DNA of 32,000 bases from Candidatus Saccharimonadota bacterium (lineage in GTDB: Archaea > Nanobdellota > Nanobdellia > Pacearchaeales > GW2011-AR1): NCBI GenBank assembly GCA_041659445.1, contig JBAZYG010000001.1, positions 150,001 through 182,000 on the forward strand, in the 5' to 3' direction. Positions 2,549 to 29,910 of this stretch are shown piece by piece. The notes under the pieces are model-generated. The model ran no database searches, was not told the DNA's origin, and saw only the letters and a program-made list of their open reading frames with translations. The position numbers were made by a program, and so were the translations under genes. Position 1 is the first letter of the stretch. The number at the start of each line of letters is the position of its first letter.

Positions 2549-2569
2549 TAAAATGAAAGGAGGTTTAAA

Positions 2570-4639: not shown

Positions 4640-4680
4640 AGAATATAAATATTTATAAATCAGTATTTTATTGTTAAATC

Positions 4681-5424: not shown

Positions 5425-5436
5425 AAAAATAAAATT

Positions 5437-6246: not shown

Positions 6247-6254
6247 TTTGTAAT

Positions 6255-6827: not shown

Positions 6828-9251
6828 TTAAAAAATTCCTAGAATATCTGAATCTTTTTTTGATAAGTGTTCTGTTGAATTTTGGTTTTCAAAATCTTTT
6901 TCAATTCTTTGTTTTTCTTTATGCACTTCGTAATTTCTCATTTCTTTATCTGTTCCTTTTAATATTTCTTGTTCTAGTTCATGAATATAATCACTTATTT
7001 CTTTTGCTACATCTGCATTAACACTTATGCTGTCAATTTCGTTTTCTATCAAAAATTTTACCATTTCTTTTTTACTTCCAGATTGTCCGCAAATACTTGT
7101 TTCAACATTTCTTCTTTTACAGACTCTTATCACATACGCAATTTGGTGCAATATTGCAGGATGCATTTCATTGTAAAGATGTTGAACTTGTTCGTTTCCT
7201 CTATCAACTGCTAAAATATATTGTGTTAAATCATTTGTTCCGAATGAAATAAAGTCAATTCCTTCTTCACATAATTCTTGTATTAATTGAACTGCAGCAG
7301 GAGTTTCTATCATCACTCCAACTTTTGCATTTTCAAATTTTAATTCTTTCATAATTTTTTTTACTTGCTTTATTTCATCAACGCTTATAACTTGTGGAAG
7401 CAAAATTCCAATTGTTGTTCCTTCTTCAGAAATTTTTTTCAATGCATTTAATTCAGCCTTTAATATTTTAGGGTTTTTTAACCCAAATCTGATTCCATGC
7501 ATACCTAACATTGGATTTGTTTCAATTTCTTTTGGAGCACCTTCGAGATCATGAAATTCATCACTTCTTATATCTGAAGTTCTTACCCAAATTTCTTCAA
7601 AGTATTTTGAAATTCCTTTTACTCCTTTGAAAATTACTTCTTCATATTCTGTCATTTTATTATTTGTTAAAAAATAATTTGGATGAATTCCAGATTCTGC
7701 AATTATTCCTTCAAGTCTTGTTAATCCAACTTTTTTTATTCCTGTTTTTGATGCTCTTTCTGCAAAGCTTGGTAAATCTACAATAACTTTTAATTTTGTT
7801 TTAGTAATTTTTGTTATTGGTTCTATTTCTTTTAATTTATTTTCTGAAGTTTTCCCAAGATAAACTTTTCCTTCATATCCGTCGACAGTTATTTCTTGTC
7901 CGTCTTGTAATTTTTCTGTTGCAGTTCTTGTTCCGACAACTGCAGGAATTCCCATTTCTCTTGATACAATTGCAGCATGTGCAGTCATACCTCCTTCATC
8001 AGTAACTATTGCAGAAGATTTTTGCATTGTTACAACCATATCTGGATTTGTCATGATTGTAACTAAAACATCGCCTTTTTGAATTTTGTTTAAATCTTTT
8101 AAATCTTTAATTATTTTCACTTTTCCCGAGGCGATTCCAGGAGAAGCTGCTAATCCTGTTAAAATTATTTCTCCTTTTATTTTTTCGTCTTGTTTTCTAG
8201 AATTTTTTCCTAAAGTTGTAATTGGTCTTGTTTGAACAATATAAATGTCGTCGTTTTCAATTGCAAACTCCATGTCTTGTGGTTTTGAATAATGTTCTTC
8301 TAAAATATTTGCAAAATCTGCTAATTTTTTTATTTCATAATCTTTCAGAACTTGGGCTTTTGAACGTTCTTCTCGTAATTCAAGAATTTTTGTTTCACCA
8401 GAAGCAGTTCGTCTTATTGCAATTTTTTTTTCTTCAATTCTTTTACTTAAAATGTTTAAATTTTTTGAAATTGTATATGTATCTGGGGTTATTCTTCCTG
8501 AAACAATTCCTTCTCCTAATCCCCAAACAGCCTCGATAATTATATTTTCTGTTTGCATTGTTGGGTCTTTTGAAAAAATTACGCCTGATTTTTCTGAATT
8601 AATCATTCTTTGAATTACTACTGCTAAACTTGCTTTTACGTTTGCAAATCCTTGTTTGTTTCTATAATAAATTGCTCTTGATGTAAACAAAGATGCAAAA
8701 CATTTTTTTATTGCTTCTATTAATTCTTCATTTCCTTTTATGTTCACGTATGTTTCTTGTTGTCCTGCAAAACTAGCTTCTGCTAAATCTTCTGTTGTTG
8801 CACTGGAACGAACTGCGACGAAAATTGGTTCTTGAGCATTGTGTAAAATGTCATAAGCAGAGCCTCTTTCAATATCTAATTTATCTGAACTTAAAGTTTC
8901 ATAGGATTCTATAATTTCTTCTTTCATTTCTCTTGGGAATTTTGAATTTAAAATTAATTCTCTTATTTTTTCAGATATTCTGTCTAGTTCTTTTGTGTTT
9001 TCATAATCAATGTCTTTTAGAAGTTCATTTATTCTGTCGAGTATTCCTGCTTCTTTTATAAAATAATCATAAGCTTGAGCTGTTATTACAAATCCTTCTG
9101 GAACAGGTATTTTTGCGTTGAAAATTTCAGCGAGATTTGCACCTTTTCCTCCTGCGATACTTCCAGAACTTTTATTTAATTCAGAAAACCACTTCACAAA
9201 ATCTGGGTGTTGTTCTGAATCTTCGATGCTTTTACCTCTTTTTTCAAACAT
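6828..9251 (-). CDS. ppsA: phosphoenolpyruvate synthase (pyruvate, water dikinase)
   Basis: 807-aa ORF. It has an N-terminal ATP-grasp region (GGKGANLAE), a phosphohistidine swivel motif (GGMTAHAAIVSREMGIPAVVG), and a C-terminal PEP-utilising TIM barrel with SFGTNDLTQY and TSICGQ. Confidence 0.93.
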   Translation of the reverse strand: MFEKRGKSIEDSEQHPDFVKWFSELNKSSGSIAGGKGANLAEIFNAKIPVPEGFVITAQAYDYFIKEAGILDRINELLKDIDYENTKELDRISEKIRELILNSKFPREMKEEIIESYETLSSDKLDIERGSAYDILHNAQEPIFVAVRSSATTEDLAEASFAGQQETYVNIKGNEELIEAIKKCFASLFTSRAIYYRNKQGFANVKASLAVVIQRMINSEKSGVIFSKDPTMQTENIIIEAVWGLGEGIVSGRITPDTYTISKNLNILSKRIEEKKIAIRRTASGETKILELREERSKAQVLKDYEIKKLADFANILEEHYSKPQDMEFAIENDDIYIVQTRPITTLGKNSRKQDEKIKGEIILTGLAASPGIASGKVKIIKDLKDLNKIQKGDVLVTIMTNPDMVVTMQKSSAIVTDEGGMTAHAAIVSREMGIPAVVGTRTATEKLQDGQEITVDGYEGKVYLGKTSENKLKEIEPITKITKTKLKVIVDLPSFAERASKTGIKKVGLTRLEGIIAESGIHPNYFLTNNKMTEYEEVIFKGVKGISKYFEEIWVRTSDIRSDEFHDLEGAPKEIETNPMLGMHGIRFGLKNPKILKAELNALKKISEEGTTIGILLPQVISVDEIKQVKKIMKELKFENAKVGVMIETPAAVQLIQELCEEGIDFISFGTNDLTQYILAVDRGNEQVQHLYNEMHPAILHQIAYVIRVCKRRNVETSICGQSGSKKEMVKFLIENEIDSISVNADVAKEISDYIHELEQEILKGTDKEMRNYEVHKEKQRIEKDFENQNSTEHLSKKDSDILGIF

Positions 9252-9270
9252 AAATAGAATAATTAATTAG

Positions 9271-9280
9271 AATTAATAAA
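9271..9280 (-). promoter_or_regulatory. TATA-like box for ppsA (leaderless arrangement)
   Basis: Minus-strand TTTATTAATT is centred about 25 nt upstream of the ppsA ATG at 9251. Confidence 0.35.
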
Positions 9281-9321
9281 GGTTTTTATGGGAATTATTA
9301 TACGAGTTTTATCTTTATTTT

Positions 9322-9498
9322 TTAATTTGAAATAGCATTTACAGGACAAGATTCAATTGCTTTTTTTATGCATTTTGCTTTTTTATCTGCGTTTTTTTTA
9401 ACTTGTGCTTTTCCATCTTCACTCATTTCAAAAACGTCAGGGCAAATTCCAGGACAAGTTCCACAACCTATACACTTCTTTTTGTCAACTTTTACCAT
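9322..9498 (-). CDS. fdx: small single-cluster [4Fe-4S]/[3Fe-4S] ferredoxin (Pyrococcus/Thermotoga type)
   Basis: 58-aa ORF found by hand and absent from the ORF track: MVKVDKKKCIGCGTCPGICPDVFEMSEDGKAQVKKNADKKAKCIKKAIESCPVNAISN. It carries the CxxCxxC...CP plus distal C...CP pattern. CPDVFEMSEDGKAQ closely matches the Pyrococcus furiosus ferredoxin segment CPDVFEMNDEGKAQ as I recall it. Confidence 0.8.
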   Translation of the reverse strand: MVKVDKKKCIGCGTCPGICPDVFEMSEDGKAQVKKNADKKAKCIKKAIESCPVNAISN

Positions 9499-9602: not shown

Positions 9603-10487
9603 ATGAAGATATTAATTATCGGTGCTGGTTCTATTGGAGTTTATCTTGGTACTTTATTATTTTCAAATAATCATGAAGTTATTCTCTTGGGCAGAACAAA
9701 ATTAAAGAAGCTTAATGAAACAATTTTAATTGGAGAAAACCCTTATAATTTACCTCCAAGAATTTATAAAATGCCTAAAAATAAAACCTTTGATTTTATA
9801 TTTATAACATCAAAACTTTATGATTTACAAAAAAATTTACAATCTGTCATTGAAAATAATTTAAAATCAAATTATTTAATAAGCATTCAAAATGGAATTG
9901 TTGACGAGAGTTTATATGAGCCTTATGTAAAAAATTCGAAATTTACTTCCATTTCAGTATTTGAAGGTTTTAGGTTAATAGAAAATCAATTGGTTGCTTC
10001 TTACTCAAAAGCTGGTTGGAAGACAGACAATTCTGAAACAGGGAAAGTGGTTTCAAAATTACTTTTTGATTCTAAAATAAATTGCACTATTGAAAAAGAT
10101 TTGAATTTAGTTAAAGCAGAAAAAACAATAATGAATTGCTCTGTCAATCTCTTATCTGCTATTGAAAAGAAAACTTTTTATGAATTGTTTTCTGATGAAA
10201 AAACTCTAAATAAAATCAACAAGCTTTTTGATGAATCTTATAATATTTTGAAGAAATTATACACCTTAAGAAGTAAGGAGGTATTGAAAAAAGAATTTTA
10301 TAATATTGCTTCTAAAATGAAACATTATTCTTCGACTTATCAAGATGCTATTTCTAAAAGAAAAACAGAAGCGGAATTTCTTAATGGATTAATTGTTAGG
10401 TTAGGAAAAAAGATGAAAATGCCAACTCCTGAAAATAAAAATATTCTTGAAGAGTTTTATAGGATATATTCGGATAGAAATAAATAG
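9603..10487 (+). CDS. panE: 2-dehydropantoate 2-reductase family protein (ApbA/PanE)
   Basis: 294-aa ORF with an N-terminal Rossmann motif (MKILIIGAGSIGVYLG) and a C-terminal ApbA_C-like signature (SSTYQDAISKRKTEAEFLNGLIVRLGKKMKMPTPENK). Confidence 0.72.
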   Translation: MKILIIGAGSIGVYLGTLLFSNNHEVILLGRTKLKKLNETILIGENPYNLPPRIYKMPKNKTFDFIFITSKLYDLQKNLQSVIENNLKSNYLISIQNGIVDESLYEPYVKNSKFTSISVFEGFRLIENQLVASYSKAGWKTDNSETGKVVSKLLFDSKINCTIEKDLNLVKAEKTIMNCSVNLLSAIEKKTFYELFSDEKTLNKINKLFDESYNILKKLYTLRSKEVLKKEFYNIASKMKHYSSTYQDAISKRKTEAEFLNGLIVRLGKKMKMPTPENKNILEEFYRIYSDRNK

Positions 10488-11454: not shown

Positions 11455-11949
11455 ATGAATACTAAAGAATTCGTTCAGTTAATAAGAAATCACGGATGGA
11501 ATCTTTATAAGATACCTAATTTAACTGCTCCTAGTTTTGAAGAAATGCAAAAAAATGGTCCTGTAGATTTTTTATATTCAGGAGAACATTCTTATTTTTT
11601 TGCTCCTAAACAGATGGGAAATCAAACTCTTAGAGAAGCTTATAGTATTACAAAAGGGCTTGGGCCTTCATTAGTTATTTATCCTAAATATGAAGGTTTG
11701 TTAGAAGTTTATAAAGGAACAAGCACTTGTGAGATGGATAATGAAATATTTTTTAGCAGATTATTTTTTGAAAAAGAAAGTAGTACTCTTATGACTCCTA
11801 AAACCACATATAATTTTGACCCTAGCGCAGCACTTTTAGAGACAAGATTATTATTAGATATCTTTAAGAATAATTTTAGGATTGTTAGACCAGGAAAATA
11901 TGGTAAAACCATTCCAATTCCGATGATTCAAAACCCTAGAGATAATTGA
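11455..11949 (+). CDS. hypothetical protein
   Basis: 164-aa ORF, soluble, with no motif I recognise. Confidence 0.45.
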   Translation: MNTKEFVQLIRNHGWNLYKIPNLTAPSFEEMQKNGPVDFLYSGEHSYFFAPKQMGNQTLREAYSITKGLGPSLVIYPKYEGLLEVYKGTSTCEMDNEIFFSRLFFEKESSTLMTPKTTYNFDPSAALLETRLLLDIFKNNFRIVRPGKYGKTIPIPMIQNPRDN

Positions 11950-13166: not shown

Positions 13167-13778
13167 TTAACGATAATCTATCCATTTCCAAGCTATTAAT
13201 GCAAGAATTATTGCTATTATCCACAATCCCCACGTTGGAATTCCATATATCATACCATATGCAAAAAAATGTGGACTTTGAGAATAAAAATATGTTATAA
13301 CTAAAATTGCTAGTCCTACAATAAATCCAAATGAAATTTTTGGAAATTTAAAATTCTCTCCTCTGTGATGATGTTCTCCTTCCTTAAAATTTATTCTATT
13401 TAAAAAATTTACAGAAATTGATAATATTGCGCCCATTAACAAGAGTGTCCATATTTCTTTTGGCAGTTCTTTAAATAGGGAGAGTATTACTTCTTTGACT
13501 ATCCAAATTAAAGCCATAAATAAAATTATCCAAAATAAAATTTTTAAATCAATTCTTAATCTTTTCTTTTTTATTGATGAATGAATTGTTTTTGATAAAA
13601 AGGCTAAAAGAATTCCCATAAATAAAAAATAAAATACTCTATAATCTATAAAGAAGTTCATACTTGAAAAAACCTTTGTTAAAAATAAATTAGAGACCCA
13701 AAATAATATTGCATAAATAATTGTCCATACAGCAATCCATTTTAATTGATTTAATTGTCTTTTATAAACTTCTTTCAT
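13167..13778 (-). CDS. polytopic integral membrane protein
   Basis: 203-aa ORF with about 6 hydrophobic helices and a loop containing a His run (EGEHHHRGE). No family recognised. Confidence 0.55.
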   Translation of the reverse strand: MKEVYKRQLNQLKWIAVWTIIYAILFWVSNLFLTKVFSSMNFFIDYRVFYFLFMGILLAFLSKTIHSSIKKKRLRIDLKILFWIILFMALIWIVKEVILSLFKELPKEIWTLLLMGAILSISVNFLNRINFKEGEHHHRGENFKFPKISFGFIVGLAILVITYFYSQSPHFFAYGMIYGIPTWGLWIIAIILALIAWKWIDYR

Positions 13779-17802: not shown

Positions 17803-18240
17803 ATGAAGAAAAAGAGGAAAAAGTTATTTTTTATTATTGGAGCTTTTGTGTTAATTATTGCATTTGTTTTAATTTTGATTTTTACTTTGAGACCCAAATT
17901 GACTGATGAGCAGTTATTAACTCTCGTTTATCCCCAAATTAAAGCAGATTGTGATTATCTAAATAGTCTAAAAGTTTCAGGTAATTATACAGATTGTCTT
18001 ACAAAATGCGAACTTTCTTCTGAATCTGATTTTTTGGATTCTGATGTTTCTAGGAACACATATACTTCTTATAAAGAAGGAAGTAACTATGTTTTGGAAT
18101 TAAGAATGTTTTTGACCTTTGGTAGACCCACATACTCTGGAGACTTAAATTATTATTTTGTTTTTAATAAAAAAGGAGAAGTAATTTCTGAAAATGTAAA
18201 TCCTTCTCTTGAAGAGCTTGAGAGTAGTTGGTGTTACTAA
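17803..18240 (+). CDS. N-terminally anchored membrane/exported hypothetical protein
   Basis: 145-aa ORF with MKKKRKK followed by the hydrophobic helix LFFIIGAFVLIIAFVLILIF. The ectodomain contains 4 Cys. Confidence 0.5.
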   Translation: MKKKRKKLFFIIGAFVLIIAFVLILIFTLRPKLTDEQLLTLVYPQIKADCDYLNSLKVSGNYTDCLTKCELSSESDFLDSDVSRNTYTSYKEGSNYVLELRMFLTFGRPTYSGDLNYYFVFNKKGEVISENVNPSLEELESSWCY

Positions 18241-20501: not shown

Positions 20502-21053
20502 ATGTGTAAAAATTGTGAATTAAAACCTGTTTATGAATTTACTAACAAAAGAAAATTATGTAAACAATGTTTTATAAATTGGTTTCAAAAAAAATTTCTT
20601 TATACAATAAGAAAATTTTCAATGATAAATAAAGAAGAGGTTATTGCGTATGAAAATTCAGGAAATTTTAGAGATGTTGTTTTAGAAGATTTATTAAAAA
20701 TATTTTCAGAAAAGTCAAGAATAAGTTTAATTAAACTTCCTTCAAAAAAGAAATTTACAAAAAAGGCAATTTCAGAAACAATAGATTCTAATTCAATTAA
20801 GATAATGCAGTTTATTACAGAAAATAAAATCTCTCAATTAAAGAATTTAAGTGCTTCTGATAAATCAATTATAAAACCATTGTATCTTTTTTTAGATTCA
20901 GAAGTTTTGCTTTATGCTAAATTAAAGAACTTGAAATTTGAAAAAATTGTCGAGAAGAAAACTAATTGGAGTTTTTTTATTGATGAATTAGAAATAAAGC
21001 ATCCTGAAATAAAAAGGGCAATTGTTAATAGTTATTTAGAATTATATAAGTAA
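20502..21053 (+). CDS. truncated TtuA/Ncs6-like protein: N-terminal CxxC-x14-CxxC zinc ribbon with a degenerate PP-loop
   Basis: 183-aa ORF. MCKNCELKPVYEFTNKRKLCKQCFINWFQKKFLYTIRKF resembles the TtuA/Ncs6 N-terminus. The position expected for SGGKDS reads ENSGNFRD. IIKPLYLFLDSEVLLYAKLKNL and DELEIKHPEIKRAIVNSYL resemble the conserved C-terminal TtuA segments. Confidence 0.5.
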   Translation: MCKNCELKPVYEFTNKRKLCKQCFINWFQKKFLYTIRKFSMINKEEVIAYENSGNFRDVVLEDLLKIFSEKSRISLIKLPSKKKFTKKAISETIDSNSIKIMQFITENKISQLKNLSASDKSIIKPLYLFLDSEVLLYAKLKNLKFEKIVEKKTNWSFFIDELEIKHPEIKRAIVNSYLELYK

Positions 21054-21547
21054 TTTTTATTTTTTTTATATTTCTTGTATGCAAAGAAAACAGCAATTCC
21101 AATAATGATTACTAATCCTATAACAATAACAGTTATATTCTTGAAATGCGTTGGGAAATTTTGAGATATTGAATTTTCTTTTTCAGAATTGGTATTATTT
21201 TCAGTTTTAATAGAACAACTTTGATTCTCAATAGGTTTTATATTTAAATCAGCATAACAATATGTTTTTTCCTTTGTGCAGTTTCTTATTTGTATTCCCT
21301 CTACACAAGAAGACCAAGGAGAACAACTCCAATTAGTTAAGCAACTGCTACTACCTCCTGTATTATCGCTACCTGTCTCTCCTATCACTTCGCCTGTTGG
21401 AGAGGTTGATGCAGAGTTATTCATAATAAAAGCTTCATCTTCTTGGTCAAAGAAAGTTGTATTAGCAGATACATTTTCTGTTACTGCTATTAATAAAAAT
21501 AAGATAATCAGAATAGAATTAAGTAAATTAAATTTAAATATTTGCAT
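21032..21547 (-). CDS. type I membrane protein with Cys-rich TSP1-like module
   Basis: I prefer the ATG at 21547, which gives a signal peptide (MQIFKFNLLNSILIILFLLIAVTENVSA), over the track start at 21637, which overlaps the upstream gene. The Cys module is CLTNWSCSPWSSCVEGIQIRNCTKEKTYC. The C-terminus has a TM helix (ITVIVIGLVIIIGIAVFFA) and a KKYKKNK tail. Confidence 0.6.
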   Translation of the reverse strand: MQIFKFNLLNSILIILFLLIAVTENVSANTTFFDQEDEAFIMNNSASTSPTGEVIGETGSDNTGGSSSCLTNWSCSPWSSCVEGIQIRNCTKEKTYCYADLNIKPIENQSCSIKTENNTNSEKENSISQNFPTHFKNITVIVIGLVIIIGIAVFFAYKKYKKNKNYLYNSK

Positions 21548-21557
21548 TTTATCATTA

Positions 21558-22982
21558 TTAGTTAACAGTATTTGTGTAATATGAACCAGTATAAGTGGTA
21601 ATATTTGCAACAGCAGTTTCTGATTCAAATTGAACAATTAAATTTTTTTGATTTGCATCCGCAAGAATCGTGCAAATAATTGTGTTAATAAATGGAACAT
21701 TCACATCAAGACTCATTGCGCTCTCTCCAGTATTAGCAGAATTTGTGCTCACCGCGATATTATCAATATTTTCTACAGTATCACCTGCTTGAGTCATAAA
21801 GTTACAGTTTCCAACAGGTCCTGCATCATTTATAATCACCCTATTTTGAACTGCTACTCCTGCTGTAGATGAACTTTGTGCCAGATAGACTTTAACAATA
21901 TTCATTTTACTCGGTGTTAATGCAATAGTGAATATAGTAGTATACTCTGCATTTGTAGCATTTAAATTATTTTCCAAATAAACAGGAGTAAGTTCACTTA
22001 CAGAAGAAATATCATTCCAATCATGGATAGTTGTTCCGTTCAAAGTATAATTAGATGCATTAACATTTCCAGAAGCATCAATATCTTGAACAAATAATTT
22101 AGTTATTCTGTTTATTGAACTTCCCAAGTAATTGAAAAATCCAGTATCATCTGCTGTTATATTTTCTTGTGAAAATATAGAACCCCTTGATTCAATATCA
22201 TCTTCTACTAACAAGTCAGCTCCAGTTGCGTCTGTATCACAATCAACATAATTATTTCCCTCGCATAAAGTAAAGTTCTCATTTACTAACTTGTTTGTTG
22301 CATTTCCAACTATTTGAAAACTTCTAGAAACAGTGGTTGCTCTTCCTGATAAATATGCACCGCTAATACACATTTGCATTGTTTCTGTATTTTCATCCCA
22401 AAAACATTCTTGCATCCCATAATCATTTGTTTCTGATATAATATCATGAATTAATGAATCTGCAAAAGAAGAAGGGAGTGTAGATGCAAGTTCTCTTGGA
22501 GCATTATATAAAGCAGATGTAATAGTTCCATCAGATTTAATGAAATTGATTTCATCTTGTAATTTTAAAGGACTTAAACCCTGTAATGTGCCGTGTAATA
22601 CTAAACTTCCTGTTGAAATTTCATCGGTATCTTTTCTTAAATAGTTCCAAACCACTAATCTTCTTCTTGGAGTTTGATCTGTTCCATCTATATTTATATT
22701 GAGATAATAATCTTTAGAAATATTATTGCAAGCAGAACCCACTCCTTCTTGCTCTATTTTCCACTCACCCCAATTGCCTGTTGTTAAATTAGTTATGTTT
22801 GAATAACAAGTATTTCCACCAGTTAAAGCATCATAAACACTAAAATTAAATTCATAAGTTCCTGTATTAAATGTTGTTCCAGTATAGTACTGCCCTTGCC
22901 AGACTAAAACATCTGATGCAGAAACAATGTTGATAATTAATATTAAAATGACACTTATTAAAACCAAAAATATTTTATTCAT
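21558..22982 (-). CDS. secreted lysine-poor, sequon-rich fibre/adhesin-like protein
   Basis: I prefer the ATG at 22982 (MNKIFLVLISVILILIINIVSA signal peptide), which is preceded by GGAGGGAG (22986-22993). The track start at 23054 would run through the wHTH gene. About 12 N-x-S/T sequons are present. The composition is G/T/S/N/A-rich, unlike the rest of the window. Confidence 0.65.
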   Translation of the reverse strand: MNKIFLVLISVILILIINIVSASDVLVWQGQYYTGTTFNTGTYEFNFSVYDALTGGNTCYSNITNLTTGNWGEWKIEQEGVGSACNNISKDYYLNINIDGTDQTPRRRLVVWNYLRKDTDEISTGSLVLHGTLQGLSPLKLQDEINFIKSDGTITSALYNAPRELASTLPSSFADSLIHDIISETNDYGMQECFWDENTETMQMCISGAYLSGRATTVSRSFQIVGNATNKLVNENFTLCEGNNYVDCDTDATGADLLVEDDIESRGSIFSQENITADDTGFFNYLGSSINRITKLFVQDIDASGNVNASNYTLNGTTIHDWNDISSVSELTPVYLENNLNATNAEYTTIFTIALTPSKMNIVKVYLAQSSSTAGVAVQNRVIINDAGPVGNCNFMTQAGDTVENIDNIAVSTNSANTGESAMSLDVNVPFINTIICTILADANQKNLIVQFESETAVANITTYTGSYYTNTVN

Positions 22983-23205
22983 TTTCTCCCTCCTTTTTAG
23001 TCCAAAAATAAATTTTAGCCATGCCAGTTTGTCTTGTTTTGACCTTTTTTGCACCTTCTAAAAATGAAAAATAATTAGTTACAGTTTGTCTAGAAACACC
23101 AAGTTTTGTCGACAATTCAGAAACAGTAAATCCTTTTGAATTTAATTTTAATTCTTTTATAATCTTTTCTCGATTGTGATTAATGTCTTCTCTTTTTTTC
23201 TTCAT
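22975..23205 (-). CDS. small winged-helix DNA-binding protein
   Basis: 76-aa ORF with an HTH segment (FTVSELSTKLGVSRQTVTNYFSFLEGAKKV) followed by a wing-like segment (KTRQTGMAKIYFW). Its stop overlaps the downstream start by 8 nt (ATGAATAA). Confidence 0.7.
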   Translation of the reverse strand: MKKKREDINHNREKIIKELKLNSKGFTVSELSTKLGVSRQTVTNYFSFLEGAKKVKTRQTGMAKIYFWTKKEGENE

Positions 23206-23313
23206 CTTATTGTAAATGAATATTGCTTATAATGTTGACAACAAAATCATGTTAAATATATTTAGCAATATTGTAAAGCAATTAAGAAGAAAAACTTAAT
23301 AAATAAATCCCGA

Positions 23314-23349
23314 AATGTTAACAATGTTTATAATGTGGATAATGTTAGT
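23314..23349. repeat. four tandem 9-bp units: AATGTTAAC AATGTTTAT AATGTGGAT AATGTTAGT
   Basis: Read directly from the sequence. AATGTK starts at 23314, 23323, 23332 and 23341 with exact 9-nt spacing. A further AATGTT is at 23231 and CATGTT at 23248, nearer the wHTH start. Confidence 0.6.
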
Positions 23350-23360
23350 GAAATCTAGAA

Positions 23361-23711
23361 TTATTCTTCTTTTTCTATATCTTCATTCTTAAGGAAAAAG
23401 TTATTAATTTCATTTAAATGATCAAGAACTTTTTTCAGTTGTGGATTTTTATTTACAAAATCTTTAGTTATAACAGTTTCATCCATTACTGCGAGGTAAA
23501 TTCTAGCTAAAAAATTTATTTGACTGTCATAAGAAACCCCTCTCCCTCTTTTACTTCTTATTAAATTTATTATGTCAAAAGAACCACTTTTCATAGCTTG
23601 ATCTACTTTTTTTCTTGCTACTTCATCAAGAAGTTTAATAGTTCCCTGTTTCAAAGATACGCTTATTTTTTCTTCTTGTTTATCTTCAGGTGTTTCATTT
23701 GGATAGTTCAT
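23361..23711 (-). CDS. hypothetical protein with possible N-terminal ribbon-helix-helix
   Basis: 116-aa ORF. The segment KISVSLKQGTIKLLDEVARKKV has the beta-strand plus helix look of CopG/RHH proteins. The rest is helical. Confidence 0.42.
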   Translation of the reverse strand: MNYPNETPEDKQEEKISVSLKQGTIKLLDEVARKKVDQAMKSGSFDIINLIRSKRGRGVSYDSQINFLARIYLAVMDETVITKDFVNKNPQLKKVLDHLNEINNFFLKNEDIEKEE

Positions 23712-23883
23712 TTTACAAAAGCCAATTTTTTCTATTGAGGTTCGTACTAATTACTTTAATCTAAATGAATATAATAAATATATAAATTTGTCGTTTTCAT
23801 TACTTAATTACTAAGAATTTCCTAATCTTGAATTGTTTTCTTCAATCACAAGTGTTCTATGGAATTTAGTATATAAGTAATTT

Positions 23884-25905
23884 TTATTGTTGCTGTTGTC
23901 TTTTATCTCTTTCCATTCTTTCCATGAATCCTTTTAGAAATGTTGAATTATCTCCAGACTTTCTAACTATTTCTTTTATTCTATTTGCAGAAGAATTTCC
24001 TAGTTGAACTCTTTCAGTTCTTATTGCTGAAGCTAATTTGTCCTTCATTGCATCACTTAAGTAAATTTCTTTATCAGCATAATTTGACATTTTTTTCAAG
24101 TTTGTCAAAGTATTTGTTATTGGCATGAACTTTATGGAATCTTTTTCAGGTTTTATTACTAAATCTCCTATGTCTATTGCAACTCCGTAATTCACTTTTT
24201 GTTTGAATAATTTATTATGGTTTTTTAATACATCATCAAATTCTCTTGCAATTTCTAGGGCTGTGTTTTCGTTTTGAAATGTTTTTGTTTTGAATGGAGC
24301 AAGTATAACAAATAAGTTATCTCTTGTTTGATAAATTAATCCTTTTCTACTTTCACCAATGCTTGTTAATTTTTGAAGAGTTTCTTTTAATCCTCCTGAA
24401 ATTAAATCAGTATAACCTTTTAAGTTAACAGAAACAATTGTAGCTTGTTGTTTTTGTCCTGTTATTGATAAAGATAATTCTGCTGTGGATGCAGTTGATG
24501 TCAAACTTCCTTTTTTAATTGGTTGGTCTGTTTGTATGTCTGGATGAAGTTCAGAAATATTTCTTACTTGAACTGTTGAAGGATATTTTCTTGCTCTTCC
24601 ATATGAAGGTTGTTTATGCACTCTTTTAATTAAGATTACTGAAACTGCTATTAAAACTAAAAGAACAAAACCCCAGATAAATGGATTTAATGAGAAGATA
24701 TTTTCAGAAAAATCTTTAACACTTACTGATTTTCCAGTCAAGCTTACTGTTTGAGAATGATCGCCTATTTGAACTACGTATTCTCCGTTTGGAGCTGTTA
24801 ATTTAAATTTTTTAGATTCTGAAACTCCTAAATTTACTTCAAGGTTTAATGGTTGTTCACCAATTTTTATCTCGACAATTTCGTTATAAGGAACATTACC
24901 AACATTTGTTAATATTAAAGTATTATTTAATATTTCAGATTTGATTTCTTTTTTTTCTTTTATGTCAAAAGTTTTTACATTTGTCAATTCATTATAATAT
25001 GCAGAAATTTTCCAAGATGCAGGGGGCTGTGTTTGATTTATTGCATATTCAAATTCCTCATTTGATTGAAGTTCTAATTTTTTAATTATAGTGTCTTCAT
25101 TATTTTTTATAGAAGCATAAACAGTTGTTGGAATATTCTCTCCTGTTTGATCATGCAAAGTTATTTTTCCTTTAAGATTTTCTCCAGGATTTATTGAGAA
25201 AGATTGAAGAGTAATTTCTAAACTTGTTGGAACTTGTTTTACTTTTATTGTTGTTGCTGTTGTCCCGTTATTTAATATTTGTCCTTCTGAATTTTTTTCA
25301 TAAACGTATAAATAAATTGAATGTTCTCCTGCTTTTAAATTTCCAGGAATTGTAATTTGAATTGAAAATTCTCCGTTATTCACAGCATTTGAATAAATTG
25401 GGTTTTGTGATAAATTTGTTAAAAGTTTTGCTTCAATTGTTCCTGAAGAAAATTCTCCATTTTGTTTTGTTGCAGTTCCTATGATAAAAATTGTTTCTCC
25501 TGGGGAAACCTCGTTTGTTATTTCATTAAGAGACAAAATTATTTTATTTGAAATTAAAAAGTTTGAACTCAAATCTCCTGCTTGTTCTCCTAGTTTATAA
25601 TAAATTAAACAATTTCCCAATGATTTTCCGATGAATTCATTAACTAAAGGAATAGAAATGTCTCGAAATTTTTCACCATCTTGCATAAAAATAGATTCTT
25701 TGTATATTTCTGTTTCGATTGTTCCGCATTTTAATATAACACTTAATGAATCACTTATAGGTGTTTCTGCTGTTATTTTTATTGGAACATTTAATGTGTC
25801 ACCTAAATTATATATGCTTTGAGGAGTTTGTTCTAAAGTTATTGTTGCTGAAGCTAAAGAAATTGCGAATATTAGAAAAATTATAAATAATGCCTCTTTT
25901 CTCAT
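23884..25905 (-). CDS. receptor-like single-pass membrane protein: signal peptide, Ig-like beta-sandwich ectodomain repeats, TM helix, cytoplasmic cyclase/palm-like domain
   Basis: 673-aa ORF. The signal peptide is MRKEALFIIFLIFAISLASA. The ectodomain is about 390 aa, beta-rich and repetitive. The TM helix is FIWGFVLLVLIAVSVILI, followed by KRVHKQ. The cytoplasmic segment ATIVSVNLKGYTDL...RDNLFVILAP...YGVAIDIGDLVI...ITNTLTNLKKMSNYADKEIYLSDAMKDKL follows the class III cyclase topology. Confidence 0.68.
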   Translation of the reverse strand: MRKEALFIIFLIFAISLASATITLEQTPQSIYNLGDTLNVPIKITAETPISDSLSVILKCGTIETEIYKESIFMQDGEKFRDISIPLVNEFIGKSLGNCLIYYKLGEQAGDLSSNFLISNKIILSLNEITNEVSPGETIFIIGTATKQNGEFSSGTIEAKLLTNLSQNPIYSNAVNNGEFSIQITIPGNLKAGEHSIYLYVYEKNSEGQILNNGTTATTIKVKQVPTSLEITLQSFSINPGENLKGKITLHDQTGENIPTTVYASIKNNEDTIIKKLELQSNEEFEYAINQTQPPASWKISAYYNELTNVKTFDIKEKKEIKSEILNNTLILTNVGNVPYNEIVEIKIGEQPLNLEVNLGVSESKKFKLTAPNGEYVVQIGDHSQTVSLTGKSVSVKDFSENIFSLNPFIWGFVLLVLIAVSVILIKRVHKQPSYGRARKYPSTVQVRNISELHPDIQTDQPIKKGSLTSTASTAELSLSITGQKQQATIVSVNLKGYTDLISGGLKETLQKLTSIGESRKGLIYQTRDNLFVILAPFKTKTFQNENTALEIAREFDDVLKNHNKLFKQKVNYGVAIDIGDLVIKPEKDSIKFMPITNTLTNLKKMSNYADKEIYLSDAMKDKLASAIRTERVQLGNSSANRIKEIVRKSGDNSTFLKGFMERMERDKRQQQQ

Positions 25906-25968
25906 TTTTATCTATAAAAATTAGTATTTTTCTATTTATAAAGATTTATGAGGAAGAAGAGTTTAATT

Positions 25969-26358
25969 TTAATTAAGTTGTTGCTCTATATTTTTACATA
26001 TTTTTTTATTATTAAATGAAACTAATGCAAATATTTTTGGAGTTGTTTTATAAAATAAAATGCATCTTTTTTCGTCTCCTATTACAGCATACATATTGCC
26101 AAATTCAGAGTTATTTATTGCATTTAAGGTAATATTCGTTTCTTTTTTTCCAATCAATTTAAGGATGTTTTCTTCTATTGATGTTATTCCTGTTTTTGAA
26201 TAAAAGATTTTTAAGTTATCAGATTTTTCAAATATTTTAATTAAAGGAATTTTAAAGGATTTTTCATCGGCAAGAAATTTAAATCCATCATCCTTTTCTA
26301 TTAAGTGTTCTAATGCTTTTTGATATTCCTTATCTGTCATTTCCATATTTTTATTCAT
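25969..26358 (-). CDS. hypothetical protein, tandem paralog A
   Basis: The start is ambiguous (26394, 26358 or 26346). I chose 26358 to avoid overlapping paralog B. The C-terminus (CILFYKTTPKIFALVSFNNKKICKNIEQQLN) parallels paralog B. Confidence 0.55.
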   Translation of the reverse strand: MNKNMEMTDKEYQKALEHLIEKDDGFKFLADEKSFKIPLIKIFEKSDNLKIFYSKTGITSIEENILKLIGKKETNITLNAINNSEFGNMYAVIGDEKRCILFYKTTPKIFALVSFNNKKICKNIEQQLN

Positions 26359-26374
26359 TTTATTTGGAGATTTT

Positions 26375-26788
26375 TTAATTAAGATTATTTTCAAGATTTT
26401 TACATAATTCTTTGTTGTTAAAGCAGATTAATGCAACTGGTTTTCTTTTAGGATTTTTTTCATAAACTTTTATTCCATAATAGAGAATATATCTTTTTTT
26501 ATCCCCCCTAAGACATATATAATCGGGGCTATCTATTTCTTTTATAGTGACATCCTCTTTATTTCTTTTTTCTAATTTTTTAATAATTTTATTTTTTATT
26601 TCTTCCCATTGCTCAGTCATTCTTTCTTTGGGGTAAACAAATTCTAAATTTCTAGAGAGGTTTATCATTTTTTCTATAGTGTAATTTAATTCTGAAGGTT
26701 TATTATGTAAATATTGAAGGGGATCATCATGAGAAATTAAATTTTCTACAAGGAATTGATATTTTTTTCTCACTCTATCTTTTGTCAT
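26375..26788 (-). CDS. hypothetical protein, tandem paralog B
   Basis: 137-aa ORF. KKYQFLVENLISHDDPLQYL and YILYYGIKVYEKNPKRKPVALICFNNKELCKNLENNLN align with KEYQKALEHLIEKDDGFKFL and the C-terminus of paralog A. Confidence 0.58.
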   Translation of the reverse strand: MTKDRVRKKYQFLVENLISHDDPLQYLHNKPSELNYTIEKMINLSRNLEFVYPKERMTEQWEEIKNKIIKKLEKRNKEDVTIKEIDSPDYICLRGDKKRYILYYGIKVYEKNPKRKPVALICFNNKELCKNLENNLN

Positions 26789-26810
26789 ATTCTTTTTAAA
26801 TTCTTTTTTG

Positions 26811-26820
26811 TTTATAAGTA
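26811..26820 (-). promoter_or_regulatory. TATA-like box for paralog B (leaderless arrangement)
   Basis: Minus-strand TACTTATAAA is centred about 27 nt upstream of the ATG at 26788. Confidence 0.35.
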
Positions 26821-26848
26821 TTTATATAGCACAATTAAATTTACATAA

Positions 26849-26858
26849 TTTTAAATAT
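26849..26858 (+). promoter_or_regulatory. TATA-like box for trpS (leaderless arrangement)
   Basis: TTTTAAATAT is centred about 25 nt upstream of the ATG at 26879. Confidence 0.4.
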
Positions 26859-26878
26859 CTTGATTTTTTATTATTTTT

Positions 26879-28006
26879 ATGGTTAAAAAAAAGAGTGTGG
26901 TTAACCCTTATAGTGTTTCTGGTGAAGTTAATTATGAGAAGTTAATTAAAGAGTTTGGAGTTTCAAAAATTGATTCTAAATTATTAGATAGAATTCAAGC
27001 AATTACAAAAGATTTGCATTTTATGCTTAGAAGAGGAGTTTTTTTTGCTCATAGAGATTTGAATTGGATTTTAGACGAATACAAAAAAGGAAACAAATTT
27101 TTTTTATATACTGGAAGAGCTCCTTCTGGTAAAATACATTTGGGACATTTAATGCCTTGGGTTTTTGTAAAATGGCTTCAAGATAGGTTTGATGTTGAAT
27201 TATGGTTTCATTTTCCAGACGAAGAAAAGTTTTTGTTTAAGGGTGATTTGAATTTTGATGAAGTTCAAAAAACTTTGAAAGATAACATGTTAGATGTTAT
27301 TGCCTTGGGTTTTGATCCAAAAAAAACACATTTTATCGTCGATACTCTTCATGCAGGAGTTATGTACAAAGAAGCTTGCAAAGTTGCTAAGAAAATTACA
27401 TTCAGTACAATTAAGGCTAGTTTTGGTTTTAATGATCAATCAAATATTGGTTCTATTTTTTATACAAGTATGCAAACAGTTCCAAGTTTTTTACCATCTG
27501 TTTTAAAAAATAAACAAATTCCGTGTTTAATTCCTCATGGTATTGACCAAGATCCACATTTTAGAATTGCCAGAGACGTGTTACCTAAACTAGGACATTT
27601 AAAACCAGCGTCTATTCAATGCAAATTTCTTCCTGCTTTACAAGGTCCTTCAAGTAAAATGTCGTCGAGTGCAGAAGCAAGTGCAATTTATACTACTGAT
27701 GATGCAAAAACTGTTGCAAATAAAATAAATAAGTATGCTTTTTCAGGAGGAGGAGCAACTTTAGTAGAGCATAAAAAAAATGGTGGAAATCCTGAGGTTG
27801 ATGTTTCTTTCCAATATTTAAAAATGTTTTTTGAATCTGACGATAAAAGACTTGAAAAGATTAAAGCAATGTATGAATCTGGAGACTTATCAACAGGTGA
27901 ATTAAAAAAAATTTTAATTGATAAAATAAATGCTTTTTTAAAAGAACATCAAAAAAAGAGAAAAGAAGCAGAAAATAAAATTAATGATTTTTTATATAAA
28001 TTTTAA
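26879..28006 (+). CDS. trpS: tryptophan--tRNA ligase, archaeal/eukaryal type
   Basis: 375-aa ORF with class I motifs: a HIGH-type motif (TGRAPSGKIHLGHLMPW) and a KMSKS-type motif (KMSSS). It has the overall archaeal/eukaryal TrpRS layout. Confidence 0.9.
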   Translation: MVKKKSVVNPYSVSGEVNYEKLIKEFGVSKIDSKLLDRIQAITKDLHFMLRRGVFFAHRDLNWILDEYKKGNKFFLYTGRAPSGKIHLGHLMPWVFVKWLQDRFDVELWFHFPDEEKFLFKGDLNFDEVQKTLKDNMLDVIALGFDPKKTHFIVDTLHAGVMYKEACKVAKKITFSTIKASFGFNDQSNIGSIFYTSMQTVPSFLPSVLKNKQIPCLIPHGIDQDPHFRIARDVLPKLGHLKPASIQCKFLPALQGPSSKMSSSAEASAIYTTDDAKTVANKINKYAFSGGGATLVEHKKNGGNPEVDVSFQYLKMFFESDDKRLEKIKAMYESGDLSTGELKKILIDKINAFLKEHQKKRKEAENKINDFLYKF

Positions 28007-29130
28007 ATTGCTTTTTTTTCTGTCATAGCAATTTCTTTTAAAACTATTTTTTCAAGTGATTTTTCTGGAATTTGTTCTTTTTCTTTATTATATCTAATTT
28101 GTGTAAGTTCGTCGACGAGTAAATCTGTATTATAAAATTCTTTTGTAAATTTTTCCACTTTTTTCATTTCTTCGATTAAGTATTTTCTTTGAATTCCTAA
28201 TTCAGTATCTTTCTTTGCAATTTTATTTCCGCTTTTTTTCCAAATTTCAATGGCTTGATTTGATAAATCATCATAATATTCTATTACTGATGCTGGTTTC
28301 AAGAAGTTCTTTTCAAAATTTTCTCCTAATATTAATGTTTCATCTTCTGGGTTTTCTTTCTTTTTTATTCCGAATGTCCATACATTTGAAGTATTTTCTG
28401 GTTGTTGTGCATTCAAAAGAAAAGTTGGATTTCCCCTGTATTCTAAAGGTATTGAATAATTTACAAATTTTGCTCCTTCAATTGGTAACCCTATTCTGAA
28501 AATTGTTCTAGAGCCATTTATTAAATGTATTAATTTTGAAGAATTATTTCCAAAAATTGTGAAGAGCCCAGAATTATAGGGTAGTTCTTTATTTTTTAAT
28601 TCCATTGTTTTAAATTTATGATCTGTTCTTCTTATGTTCTTGTTTTTGCTATAAACCACGCCGTTGTCTTCAATTCTACTATTTCCATATTCAGTTGTTT
28701 TGTATAAAATTTCAAGGTTATCATCCATTTTTGATTCACCGCTAGAATTTCTTTTTGAATAATCCTGCACGAAAAAACTTTTACCTTTTCTAAATACTGC
28801 TGTATCTGTTCCCAAGAGGTTTTGGGGAATGTTATTATAAATTAATTTTTTTAACAAAAAATTTCTGTCTGAAGGATTTTTGTCTGATAAATATTCTAAA
28901 AATAAAACTGATTGGGGCGCTGTAACCATTCTAAATCCTTTGTCTTCTATTTTTTGCTTTAAATCATATGATTTTCCTGGTTCAAAACTGTCTAAGTAAA
29001 ATTGAAAACTTTCTGGTTTTTGCACTTTTTGGTTTGGTTCTTCATCATAATCTTTTAATAAAGTTTTTACTGATTGAATTACTTTTTTACTATTTCTTAG
29101 ATTTCCAAAAATAAAATTGAATATTCCCAT
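28003..29130 (-). CDS. hypothetical protein
   Basis: 375-aa ORF with no TM segment. A TATA-like CTTATAAAC lies about 25 nt upstream of the ATG. No family recognised. Confidence 0.5.
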   Translation of the reverse strand: MGIFNFIFGNLRNSKKVIQSVKTLLKDYDEEPNQKVQKPESFQFYLDSFEPGKSYDLKQKIEDKGFRMVTAPQSVLFLEYLSDKNPSDRNFLLKKLIYNNIPQNLLGTDTAVFRKGKSFFVQDYSKRNSSGESKMDDNLEILYKTTEYGNSRIEDNGVVYSKNKNIRRTDHKFKTMELKNKELPYNSGLFTIFGNNSSKLIHLINGSRTIFRIGLPIEGAKFVNYSIPLEYRGNPTFLLNAQQPENTSNVWTFGIKKKENPEDETLILGENFEKNFLKPASVIEYYDDLSNQAIEIWKKSGNKIAKKDTELGIQRKYLIEEMKKVEKFTKEFYNTDLLVDELTQIRYNKEKEQIPEKSLEKIVLKEIAMTEKKAI

Positions 29131-29166
29131 GTTTTTCTGTTTTTTTCAGAGTTTATAAGTCTTTGT

Positions 29167-29910
29167 TTAGTTTTTATTAAAGTCTTTTGCAGTTGCAAAA
29201 TAAGTATTTGAATCTTTAGATTTTTCGTCAGCTACATATGTTGGATATAAAATTTCTTTTCTTGATTCTAATTTTAATTCTTTTGTTTTTATTCTTTCTA
29301 TTCTTGAGCCCCATTGATGATCAAAAATTAATGCAACTTCTTCTTTTCCTGTTTTTTCATTGTACACTATTTCTGAACCTCTGTAAATTGCATTATGTGT
29401 TGCAATTACTTTTTTGCCTTTTTCATCTTTGCTATTTGCATAATGACTGTATTTGTAATAAAATCCTACAATCATTCCTGGTTGTAATTCTCCTGTCATT
29501 GCTAAAGTATCTAATCTCTTCCAATTATCTTCAGGGTTTTTTTCTTTTTTATCTACTAAATATTTCCAACTTTTTTTAGGATCTTTTTCATTTATTTTTG
29601 CAATAACTTTATCATGATAAATTCTATTTTCAGAAGCAACTTGAGTATATTCTTTTTTATATTCTTTTTTTGCAATCATTCTTGAATATTTAGCACATTC
29701 CAATGGAGATAATTTTATTTTTTTATTTAATGCTGGAATTTTTTGTTCTTTTATGTCTTCTAAATTCCAATGCGGTTTAAGGCTTTCTTTATAATCAAGA
29801 ACTCTTTTTTCTAATGCTTTTGGATCATTAATATGACTTCCTACATTTGCTTTTATATAAGGCAAAGTGCTCATTCCTAATGCTAATAAATATGCTGTTA
29901 GTTTTTTCAT
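29167..29910 (-). CDS. secreted hypothetical protein (weak papain-like/NlpC-P60-like Cys...His pattern)
   Basis: 247-aa ORF with a signal-like N-terminus (MKKLTAYLLALGMSTLPYIKA). AAGGAG lies 6 nt upstream of the ATG. The segments SPLECAKYS, LQPGMIVGFYY, ATHNAIYRG and FDHQWG are present. Confidence 0.5.
   Translation of the reverse strand: MKKLTAYLLALGMSTLPYIKANVGSHINDPKALEKRVLDYKESLKPHWNLEDIKEQKIPALNKKIKLSPLECAKYSRMIAKKEYKKEYTQVASENRIYHDKVIAKINEKDPKKSWKYLVDKKEKNPEDNWKRLDTLAMTGELQPGMIVGFYYKYSHYANSKDEKGKKVIATHNAIYRGSEIVYNEKTGKEEVALIFDHQWGSRIERIKTKELKLESRKEILYPTYVADEKSKDSNTYFATAKDFNKN

Follow-up and report, generated by a model that had tools for sequence, protein, structure and literature searches.

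A 32,000-nt stretch of an archaeal genome (contig JBAZYG010000001.1 of assembly GCA_041659445.1, positions 150,001 to 182,000, GTDB order Pacearchaeales; hereafter the window) poses the question of whether seven consecutive minus-strand genes constitute one functional unit, and what such a unit might do. The seven open reading frames (ORFs), designated g1 to g7 in the order of transcription, lie between u1 (20502-21053, plus strand) and the gene for tryptophanyl-tRNA synthetase (TrpRS; 26879-28006, plus strand; Pfam tRNA-synt_1b, 4e-29), and all of them were found where an earlier note on this DNA had located them between trpS and a TtuA-like gene. The latter, u1, is a backbone flank encoding a short TtuA-like protein of 183 amino acids (aa), with an NCBIfam TtuA match of 3e-5 at the N-terminus only. 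The earlier note had read the seven genes as a single block of orphans that could be either an attachment apparatus or the remnant of an integrated element. We find this interpretation to be right in part, for four of the seven genes only. Judged by gene order in relatives, the block is a composite of three units (g3, the g1/g2 pair and a g4-g7 cassette), and we consider it probable, at roughly 0.6, that the g4-g7 cassette specifies a regulated chimeric surface fibre or adhesin analogous to the MAT fibres of Bdellovibrio bacteriovorus.

One genome per GTDB species was scanned with an alignment of the g3 family, 80 loci with flanks of up to 10 kb were kept, and all window proteins were compared with these 80 g3 loci by tblastn; locus L001, which represents the same genome in an assembly of another run, was set aside in the presence/absence counts. 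The backbone order in the 80 Pacearchaeota loci is threonyl-tRNA synthetase (ThrRS), TrpRS, a divergent g3 and then u1, u2 or both, in convergent orientation to g3. The TrpRS-g3 spacer measures 69-289 nt in 59 of 65 loci (median about 91 nt), and the distance between the 3′ ends of g3 and u1/u2 is within ±300 nt in about 59 of 72 loci, often with an overlap of a few bases; for u1, the 3′ end abuts or overlaps that of g3 in relatives. In the closest relatives, L002 and L003, whose g3 is 47% identical to that of the window, TrpRS, g3 and u1 are directly adjacent. Apart from L001, the related loci gave zero tblastn matches to g1, g2, g4, g5 and g7, and only two short fragments of g6. Read against its lineage in this way, the window carries two insertions around the core gene g3, one (g1-g2) within the promoter spacer between TrpRS and g3 and the other (g4-g7) where g3 and u1 converge, and what had been described as a single block splits into three units that differ in history. 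Over window positions 22837-27058 an assembly of run SRR18595301 shows 100% identity, and one of run SRR6484324 carries the 3′ end of g6, g7, u1 and u2; since both block junctions are recovered in assemblies of two other runs, the arrangement is not an assembly artefact.

Comparison of the two ends of the g4-g7 segment (21032-23869) gives good support for a discrete 2.8-kb insertion placed exactly at the convergent g3/u1 junction. The segment is flanked by a direct repeat of 22 nt. Its right copy, TATATAAGTAATTTTTATTGTT (23870-23891), joins what is left of the u1 3′ end, across a 4-nt spacer, to the g3 stop codon, and its left copy, TATATAAGTAATTTTTATTTTT (21043-21064), overlaps the true u1 stop and the 3′ end of g7, the last codons of which pass through the repeat. 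The copies stand 2827 nt apart and have the sequence TATATAAGTAATTTTTATT[T/G]TT in common; the likeness runs 6 nt further (ATTTAG) if a 3-nt indel is allowed. What is repeated runs from the last codons and stop of u1 through the 4-nt spacer into the stop and final codons of g3. This corresponds to the ancestral convergent junction, which is thus present on both sides of the insert. The identity of 21/22 was reached in 0 of 1000 dinucleotide shuffles (maximum 19) and in none of about 970 random pairs of real 110-nt windows (maximum 20). The insertion therefore appears to have duplicated about 22 nt of the g3/u1 junction. Because the cassette is absent from this position in 80 relatives and the junction is duplicated here, the cassette was gained, not lost, at g3/u1. 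The window holds no tRNA target for integration, the target being the convergent ends of g3 and u1, and the locus illustrates cleanly how genes were inserted with a 22-nt duplication of the junction and without a recombinase nearby.

The cassette is also found elsewhere. Database searches returned 157 homologues of g6 at E<=1e-3, many of them 70-86% identical; for comparison, identity is 50% for the best g3 homologue and about 70% for the best relatives of TrpRS and ThrRS. A metagenome scan with an alignment limited to the g6 N-module recovered 79 loci, and cassette loci (at least 79 from metagenomes) carry the labels of Pacearchaeota, Woesearchaeota and Micrarchaeota bins. The cassette occurs at different chromosomal sites in different DPANN genomes: in L083 it lies between HAMP and PAS genes (g4 81%, g5 77%, g6 78% and g7 34% identical to the window proteins), in L082 g6 and g7 lie between a short-chain dehydrogenase and a cupin/ROK pair, and in L084 the same two genes lie between aEF-1beta and eIF2alpha/S27e. 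The gene order is maintained, with g7 directly after g6 in 30 of the 34 loci long enough to judge. The sequence shared by 13 cassette copies sets in at a conserved TATA-like box and leader, some 110-150 nt ahead of the g4 ATG, and extends as far as the g7 stop; in the window, both limits coincide with the two repeat copies. The left end of the cassette (23712-23869, minus strand) is, in the alignment of these copies, the conserved promoter and leader region of g4, with TATA-like AAATTTATATAT at about 23772-23790 and the leader GGCTTTTGTAAAATG. The description of the genes as orphans is accordingly sound for g1/g2 and fails for g3 (452 database matches), for g6, and for g4, g5 and g7, which recur beside g6. 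Literature searches returned no description of the cassette. One g6 homologue with 54% identity, P0187, is labelled as coming from a Calditrichia bacterium bin and is probably a mis-binned DPANN contig.

It could be argued that all seven genes form one co-evolved host-interaction module in which a g3 receptor, the regulators, the fibre and the anchor act together, as they share a single strand with short spacers and as g3, g6 and g7 are all predicted to be surface-exposed. We regard this as very improbable: in 80 of 80 related loci g3 stands without the other six genes, 83 of 83 other cassette loci lack g3, g1 and g2, with zero matches to these three proteins, g1/g2 are found nowhere else, a separate insertion event between g3 and g4 is marked by the repeat, and g3 and g4 each have a promoter-like TATA region of their own. 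Since g3 never co-occurs with the cassette elsewhere, it is not part of the cassette's apparatus.

As judged by AlphaFold2 (AF2) models, Foldseek searches and an alignment of homologues, g6 (21558-22982, minus strand; ATG start as in NCBI) encodes an exported modular fibre of 474 aa. The protein opens with a Sec-type signal peptide whose cleavage site, between SAS and D, is conserved; this is followed by an N-domain (aa 24-110) that was modelled with a predicted local distance difference test score (pLDDT) above 90. This N-domain had no PDB or Pfam match and is previously undescribed. The N-module as a whole (aa 1-127) is mostly 55-88% identical in the members carrying it, with a few at about 40-50%, and the g6 modules combine independently among homologues, the C-module being present in 15 and the middle in 59 of 83 loci. 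The neck repeat is of the chlorovirus-glycoprotein type (Chlorovi_GP_rpt, PF06598), a family detected in 10 of 60 family members, with Collagen in 2 and dockerin in 1 of the 60. The C-terminal tip (aa 330-474) is predicted by AF2 to be a TNF/C1q-like jelly-roll (pLDDT about 90), and its PDB matches, all with a probability of 1.0, are to the Photorhabdus lectin PLTL (6e-4), the C-domain of Chlamydia Pgp3 and the Bdellovibrio MAT tip Bd2734 (8okw, 3e-3). Against BFVD, g6 had 178 matches at E<=1e-3, to phage tail fibres, the best at 2.4e-9. The proposal that g6 is a fibre- or adhesin-like glycoprotein thus stands as regards the fibre, through the model and the fold matches, and finds no support as regards the glycoprotein, there being 12 N-X-S/T sequons versus about 10 expected from composition. 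In L083 a second fibre-type gene stands in tandem, with 188-nt leaders (9210-9397 and 10016-10203) that are 94% identical.

The closest parallel to this architecture is provided by the MAT fibres of B. bacteriovorus, which serve the predator in prey recognition and combine an invariant N-domain of unknown partner with interchangeable tips, TNF-like lectin heads among them (Caulton et al. 2024, PMC10769870). Like these fibres, g6 has an invariant N-domain without a PDB homologue, a variable stalk and an exchangeable tip, the last of which matches Bd2734, and it belongs to an organism that likewise must recognise other cells. Unlike them, it comes from an archaeon and has predicted Sec export, a compact cassette with the partner g7 (joined by a winged helix-turn-helix (wHTH) gene and g4 in a subset) and varying chromosomal sites. 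At 474 aa it is also much shorter than the MAT fibres (about 600-1100 aa), to which it is likened by domain logic and tip fold; no sequence similarity to MAT proteins was seen, though no search aimed at it was made. Phage tail fibres and receptor-binding proteins offer a second parallel, in the BFVD matches (2e-9), in a conserved N-terminal attachment module with shuffled distal modules, and in the PF06598-type neck of 10 of 60 members. From these g6 differs in being absent from the viral contigs and phage genomes searched, in having no virion genes nearby and in its Sec signal peptide with a conserved cleavage site. Because no viral context was found, we do not file g6 under phage fibres; the cassette probably encodes a kind of chimeric surface fibre, which we place in neither the MAT nor the phage-fibre family.

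A viral origin would nevertheless account for part of what we see. On that explanation g4-g7 would be the decayed remnant of an integrated DPANN virus or mobile element, with lysogeny-type regulators, a receptor-binding fibre and a membrane protein, and it would fit the direct repeat flanking the insertion, the strongest fold matches of g6 (to phage tail fibre and Mtd-N proteins, 2e-9), the collagen and chlorovirus-glycoprotein repeats of its homologues, the PHROG transcription-regulator matches of g5 and the different sites in different genomes. We consider it unlikely on the following grounds. No relative of the cassette was found in 2.9 million IMG/VR viral contigs, in three scans with different queries, nor by tblastn of the cassette against phage and plasmid collections. 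Clustering of the 645 neighbouring ORFs of long cassette loci returned no recurrent integrase, transposase, replication or capsid family; the recurrent families were g6 and g7 themselves and, beyond these, only PAS (9 loci), KaiC-like ATPases (8) and roadblock/LC7 (4). Every copy shares the same boundaries, from the g4 promoter to the g7 stop, which is not the picture of ragged decay. Finally, g4, g5 and the g6 N-domain are under strong purifying selection with near-saturated synonymous sites, and a tRNA target is lacking. The PAS, KaiC-like and roadblock/LC7 neighbours were seen at L119, L120, L132, L083 and other long cassette loci.

Several observations weigh against the reading of the cassette as a regulated chimeric fibre that was inserted as a unit. 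The middle of g6 (residues 112-330) is poorly modelled, with a pLDDT below 50, and the PDB fold matches of g6 reach only E~1e-3. At five other cassette copies no flanking repeats above chance were detected, and neither scans of g4-g7 (Pfam, PHROG, NCBIfam and PADLOC) nor neighbour clustering revealed recombinase, transposase or replication genes in or near any copy. A recognisable g4 and/or g5 lies upstream of g6 in 11 of 54 evaluable loci (about 20%); otherwise the upstream gene varies. The composition of the cassette is native-like, with a GC3 (G+C content at third codon positions) of 0.145-0.18 versus 0.144±0.033 for the window and a codon distance within range, so that the comparison of block and flanks recommended in the earlier note gave no outlier signal. 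The fraction of identical residues encoded by the same codon is 0.51-0.80 in the cassette versus 0.46-0.71 in core genes, and is near-saturated. Recent horizontal transfer, as might be suspected from the high identities, was rejected as these fractions are barely above the saturated core-gene baseline. Since synonymous sites are nearly as diverged as in core genes, the high protein identity of the cassette reflects strong purifying selection, not recent transfer.

The long residence in DPANN indicated by the near-saturated synonymous divergence and native composition, together with the chromosomal housekeeping genes that surround the copies, could also be explained if the cassette were an ordinary envelope component, for example an S-layer-associated glycoprotein and its anchor, that plays no part in partner recognition and owes its patchiness to loss. 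This appears rather unlikely. The absence of the cassette at g3/u1 in 80 relatives, combined with the duplicated junction, indicates gain in this genome; the swapping of tips and stalks with lectin-type heads is characteristic of recognition proteins; and L083 has tandem extra fibre genes with a common leader.

The gene that follows the fibre gene, g7 (21032-21547, minus strand), encodes what its sequence features and family alignment suggest is a type-I membrane protein of 171 aa. It has a signal peptide, an ETTFFDxxDDxF motif, a six-Cys CxxxWxCxxWSxCxxxGxQxRxC knot, a C-terminal transmembrane (TM) helix and a basic tail, in agreement with its earlier description as a Cys-rich membrane-anchored protein. 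The Cys motif resembles what we take to be the thrombospondin type 1 repeat (TSR) pattern, WSxWSxC...G.Q.R.C, a lead that the profile search did not confirm: assignment to the TSR family was rejected, there being no TSP_1 profile match and only an E=1.9 match to the TSR of MIC2. Assignments to type IV secretion system pilins or to CD1107-like proteins were likewise rejected, the matches being sub-threshold and confined to the TM region or the Cys motif. Because the cleaved g6 has no anchor of its own and g7 is its near-obligate neighbour, g7 would be the most economical candidate for a surface dock of the g6 N-domain.

The same pair of genes might instead be an antagonistic system, in which g6 is a secreted TNF-like lectin or pore-forming toxin, g7 its membrane immunity or export partner, and expression is under helix-turn-helix (HTH) control. 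Polymorphic toxins, too, typically pair a conserved N-module with polymorphic C-modules, the gene next downstream of g6 encodes a small membrane protein, and g6 has fold matches of low probability (0.14-0.21) to the binary-toxin components CDTb and Ib. We find this improbable, as the folds matched with a probability of 1.0 are TNF-like heads of lectins or adhesins and fibre tips instead of toxin domains, as no toxin, peptidase or nuclease Pfam domain was found in 60 g6 family members, and as the conservation of g7 across variant tips far exceeds what would be expected of a cognate immunity protein.

Two small genes precede the fibre gene in the cassette. The one immediately upstream, g5 (22975-23205, minus strand), encodes a 76-aa winged-helix DNA-binding protein, as the earlier note had predicted, with matches to HTH_11 (34.8 bits against a cutoff of 25; 1.5e-8) and HTH_24 (22.9 bits against a cutoff of 21.9) and to PHROG transcription regulators. 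It is 77-83% identical in other cassettes. Membership of a PADLOC defence family was rejected because only generic HTH matches were obtained. At 22975-22982 the end of g5 and the start of g6 share 8 nt, the two genes being one reading frame apart, and in four homologues, P0147, P0155 (= L089:9662-11341), P0132 and P0219, wHTH and fibre are fused in frame. The fused ORFs specify a cytoplasmic HTH, a hydrophobic segment in which the signal-peptidase site is kept, and the fibre ectodomain. With their cytoplasmic DNA-binding domain, TM segment and ectodomain, these homologues are reminiscent of membrane-tethered one-component regulators of the ToxR/CadC type and of archaeal ArnR; the differences are that the window has separate, overlapping genes, that the signal-peptidase site is kept even in the fusions, and that the ectodomain is a fibre, not a sensor.

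The other small gene, g4 (23361-23711, minus strand), encodes a predicted cytoplasmic protein of 116 aa from a family (about 110 aa) that is conserved among cassette copies, with 69-82% identity in the alignment and up to 86% in tblastn comparisons. Searches of Pfam and PDB gave no significant match to g4. Its earlier designation as a ribbon-helix-helix (RHH)-like protein found no profile support and was abandoned, since RHH_1 was matched by 1 of 12 family members at E=1.6 and no RHH structure was matched; an L1 ORF1p-like assignment was dropped as well, since the single-sequence PDB match (E=0.036) was gone with the family profile. The fibre homologue P0134 begins with EEKISVSLKRG, the N-terminal motif of g4, directly ahead of the fibre signal peptide, an arrangement suggestive of a deletion that joined the beginning of g4 to g6 in the genome concerned.

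The spacer between g4 and g5 (23206-23360) holds the repeats that the earlier note had described as iteron-like. The concentration itself is borne out, with 3 of the window's 15 matches to AACATTRT falling in these 155 nt, where about 0.07 would be expected pro rata. Repeat counts and a comparison of seven cassette copies reveal a common architecture: tandem ACATCAC/ACATTAT-type repeats right after the g4 stop, a ACATTTCGGG box, a promoter-like element (TTTACAATATTGCTAAATATAT in the window) and downstream partner repeats before the g5 ATG. Read by eye, the partner repeats vary together with the upstream ones. Tandem duplications of 27 nt occur in the spacers of L083, L089 and L121, perfect in L083 and perfect or near-perfect in the other two; that of L083 (8856-8909) consists of two copies of ACAGCACCTACATTCTAAACATCACTG, and the duplications of L089 and L121 differ from it in sequence. 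Because no replication gene is nearby, the repeat is best read as an operator array, and the spacer is probably such an array.

A wHTH protein, a repeat array, an exported modular fibre with a TNF-like tip and a membrane-anchored partner make up a content that fits a regulated surface fibre. The two possibilities raised earlier, an attachment apparatus and an integrated-element remnant, are therefore each partly upheld by this content and by the discrete insertion, for g4-g7 only; neither holds for the seven genes together, and for a classical element no viral or integrase signature was found. In a working model of the fibre cassette, g5, possibly with g4, would bind the repeat array around the g5/g6 promoter and set expression. 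The g6 protein would be exported by Sec, cut between SAS and D, and form a trimeric fibre by means of its neck repeat and TNF-like head. The invariant N-domain would then dock on a conserved surface partner, for which g7 is the best candidate, and the exchangeable tip would bind a ligand, probably a glycan, on another cell. It is tempting, if speculative and on balance doubtful, to go further and regard g6-g7, with g4/g5 in a subset, as an undescribed and widespread DPANN chimeric-fibre system that sets partner-cell attachment, in which tips would be exchanged by recombination behind an invariant N-handle, the cassette would relocate, both inside a genome and from one genome to another, by recombinase-independent, junction-duplicating insertion, and the wHTH-TM-fibre fusions would represent secretion-coupled autoregulation. 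The molecular basis of host recognition by DPANN archaea is largely unexplained, and g6-g7, as a compact and easily recognised gene pair, provides concrete candidates for attachment specificity.

The second unit of the block is g3 (23884-25905, minus strand), which homology, synteny, AF2 and Foldseek characterise as a Pacearchaeota receptor-like protein of 673 aa. Of its 452 database matches, the 120 listed cover at least 96% of the length at 35-50% identity and are all of about 650-700 aa, and relatives are encoded in at least 167 species genomes. Given this distribution and its constant position, g3 is a vertically inherited backbone gene of Pacearchaeota. The AF2 model, built from a 64-sequence alignment with a pLDDT of 86.6, agrees with the earlier description of a receptor-like membrane protein in predicting a single pass: a signal peptide is followed by beta-sandwich domains (about 20-400), a TM helix (408-428), a disordered linker (430-466), a cytoplasmic alpha/beta domain (474-650) and a terminal helix. 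In Foldseek searches the ectodomain, which in the model comprises beta-sandwich domains only (about 380 aa), matched the macroglobulin (MG)-domain arrays of CD109, C3/C4/C5 and bacterial alpha-2-macroglobulin (A2M) at about 1e-13, and Pfam MG2 was found in 63 of 64 family members, with g3 of the window itself scoring 22.3 bits, under the cutoff of 32.8. No thioester (TED) domain was found in the family by Pfam, and A2M_BRD was matched weakly (best E=0.0026, in 5 of 64 members). The likeness to A2M and complement thus lies in the array of MG-type beta-sandwich domains, and the differences in the lack of thioester, bait-region and CUB domains, in the length of only 673 aa, in the TM anchor and in the cytoplasmic alpha/beta domain; as g3 has neither thioester nor bait region, it shares a domain type with the A2M family without being a member.

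For the cytoplasmic domain of g3, the sole match in PDB profile searches was the adenylate/guanylate cyclase 3mr7, at a sub-threshold E=1.1 with the full-length protein and E=0.14 with the domain alone. PF00211 (Guanylate_cyc) was matched weakly by 8 of 64 relatives (best 1.4e-3), and no such match was found for g3 of the window in the Pfam scan. The DSSP order of elements in the AF2 model (E484-496, H506-519, E523-526, E530-535, H546-566, E572-586) fits the beta-alpha-beta-beta-alpha-beta order of the palm. In a by-eye alignment to the cyclase, without statistical support, the metal-binding Asp positions correspond to the invariant K496, to the near-invariant N497 and to an NLFFILAP segment, and the Asn/Arg pair to Thr/Lys. 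With its ectodomain, single TM helix and a cytoplasmic domain predicted to have a beta-alpha-beta-beta-alpha-beta order, g3 resembles receptor-type class III nucleotide cyclases and pseudo-cyclases, from which it differs in that every profile match is under threshold and in that, by eye, the metal and transition-state residues are replaced. Since the catalytic positions are replaced in this reading, catalysis is unlikely, and the role of g3 is probably that of a sensor or scaffold, not an enzyme. We moderately favour the view, from model and sequence, that g3 is a receptor-like protein with a degenerate cyclase-homology domain; what speaks against the cyclase-like label is its basis in sub-threshold matches (E=0.14-1.1 in the PDB searches, and 1.4e-3 in 8 of 64 members for Pfam). 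Literature searches found no description of the family, which can now be defined as a conserved Pacearchaeota receptor-like protein with an MG-domain ectodomain and a cyclase-like cytoplasmic domain. The divergent TrpRS/g3 pair, with its spacer of about 90 nt, is unusually stable for a tRNA synthetase and a surface protein (59 of 65 species genomes, among L002-L081).

The third unit consists of g1 (26375-26788, minus strand; 137 aa) and g2 (25969-26358, minus strand; 129 aa, counted from the ATG at 26358, with a TTG-extended ORF reaching 26394), the two tandem paralogues in the TrpRS-g3 spacer. They are 33% identical (E=8e-16), as expected from the earlier note, and form the only paralogue pair of the window. 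A word-indexed search of 5.8 billion clusters with g1 returned g1 alone, a two-sequence profile of g1 and g2 searched against 1.84 billion representative proteins returned only g1 and g2, and neither protein was matched in any of the family libraries scanned (Pfam, PHROG, NCBIfam and PADLOC). A possible SUI1/eIF1-like fold, with a PDB profile match of E=0.09, was ruled out by hhalign (probability 1.5%), and a match to Phage_TAC_8 (E=0.0033) was set aside as sub-threshold. The retention of two diverged copies with the C-terminal motif FNNKxxCKNxExxLN in common argues that g1 and g2 are real genes. By these homology searches, g1/g2 is a lineage-specific, tandem-duplicated orphan pair that is independent of the cassette.

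In a few other lineages the same junctions hold unrelated genes, including a methyltransferase/restriction island in L007, GNAT-type genes and others. The island of L007 (5400-9950) measures 4.6 kb, lies in the TrpRS-g3 spacer and carries a DNA cytosine methyltransferase-like gene, a putative restriction partner and a SWIM-zinc-finger transposase-like ORF; because L007 also has an island there, this spacer is a recurrent insertion site. Between TrpRS and ThrRS the window has two more genes without a Pfam match (28003-29910, minus strand; 375 aa and 247 aa). The former gave zero tblastn matches in the 80 related loci and the latter two weak ones, and in many relatives ThrRS and TrpRS are adjacent or about 700 nt apart. 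With these extra genes, the window has lineage-specific genes at three consecutive backbone junctions.

The rest of the window (about 26% G+C) holds ordinary archaeal chromosomal genes, among them those for ThrRS, TrpRS, Lhr helicase, a PEP-utilising enzyme, LemA, an M48 peptidase and TrmB. Scans for tRNAs and Rfam RNAs found none in the window, and sigma-70 and terminator scans gave nothing informative. Other sizeable ORFs without a Pfam match at E<=1e-3 lie within 1037-6788, 11455-11949, 13167-13778 and 17803-18240, for example 2906-4639 (577 aa), 1847-2548, 4681-5424, 5437-6285 and 6255-6788, and unannotatable genes are thus plentiful in this genome beyond the g1-g7 block. As for u1, its TtuA match (far under the cutoff) covers the N-terminal zinc-finger part only and is accompanied by a weak TIGR00269 match at the C-terminus. 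The protein apparently has no PP-loop core and is kept in 33 relatives at 38-65% identity, and two relatives have a full-length PP-loop protein of 288-307 aa next to g3 (L004:3753-4676 and L012:12011-12877).

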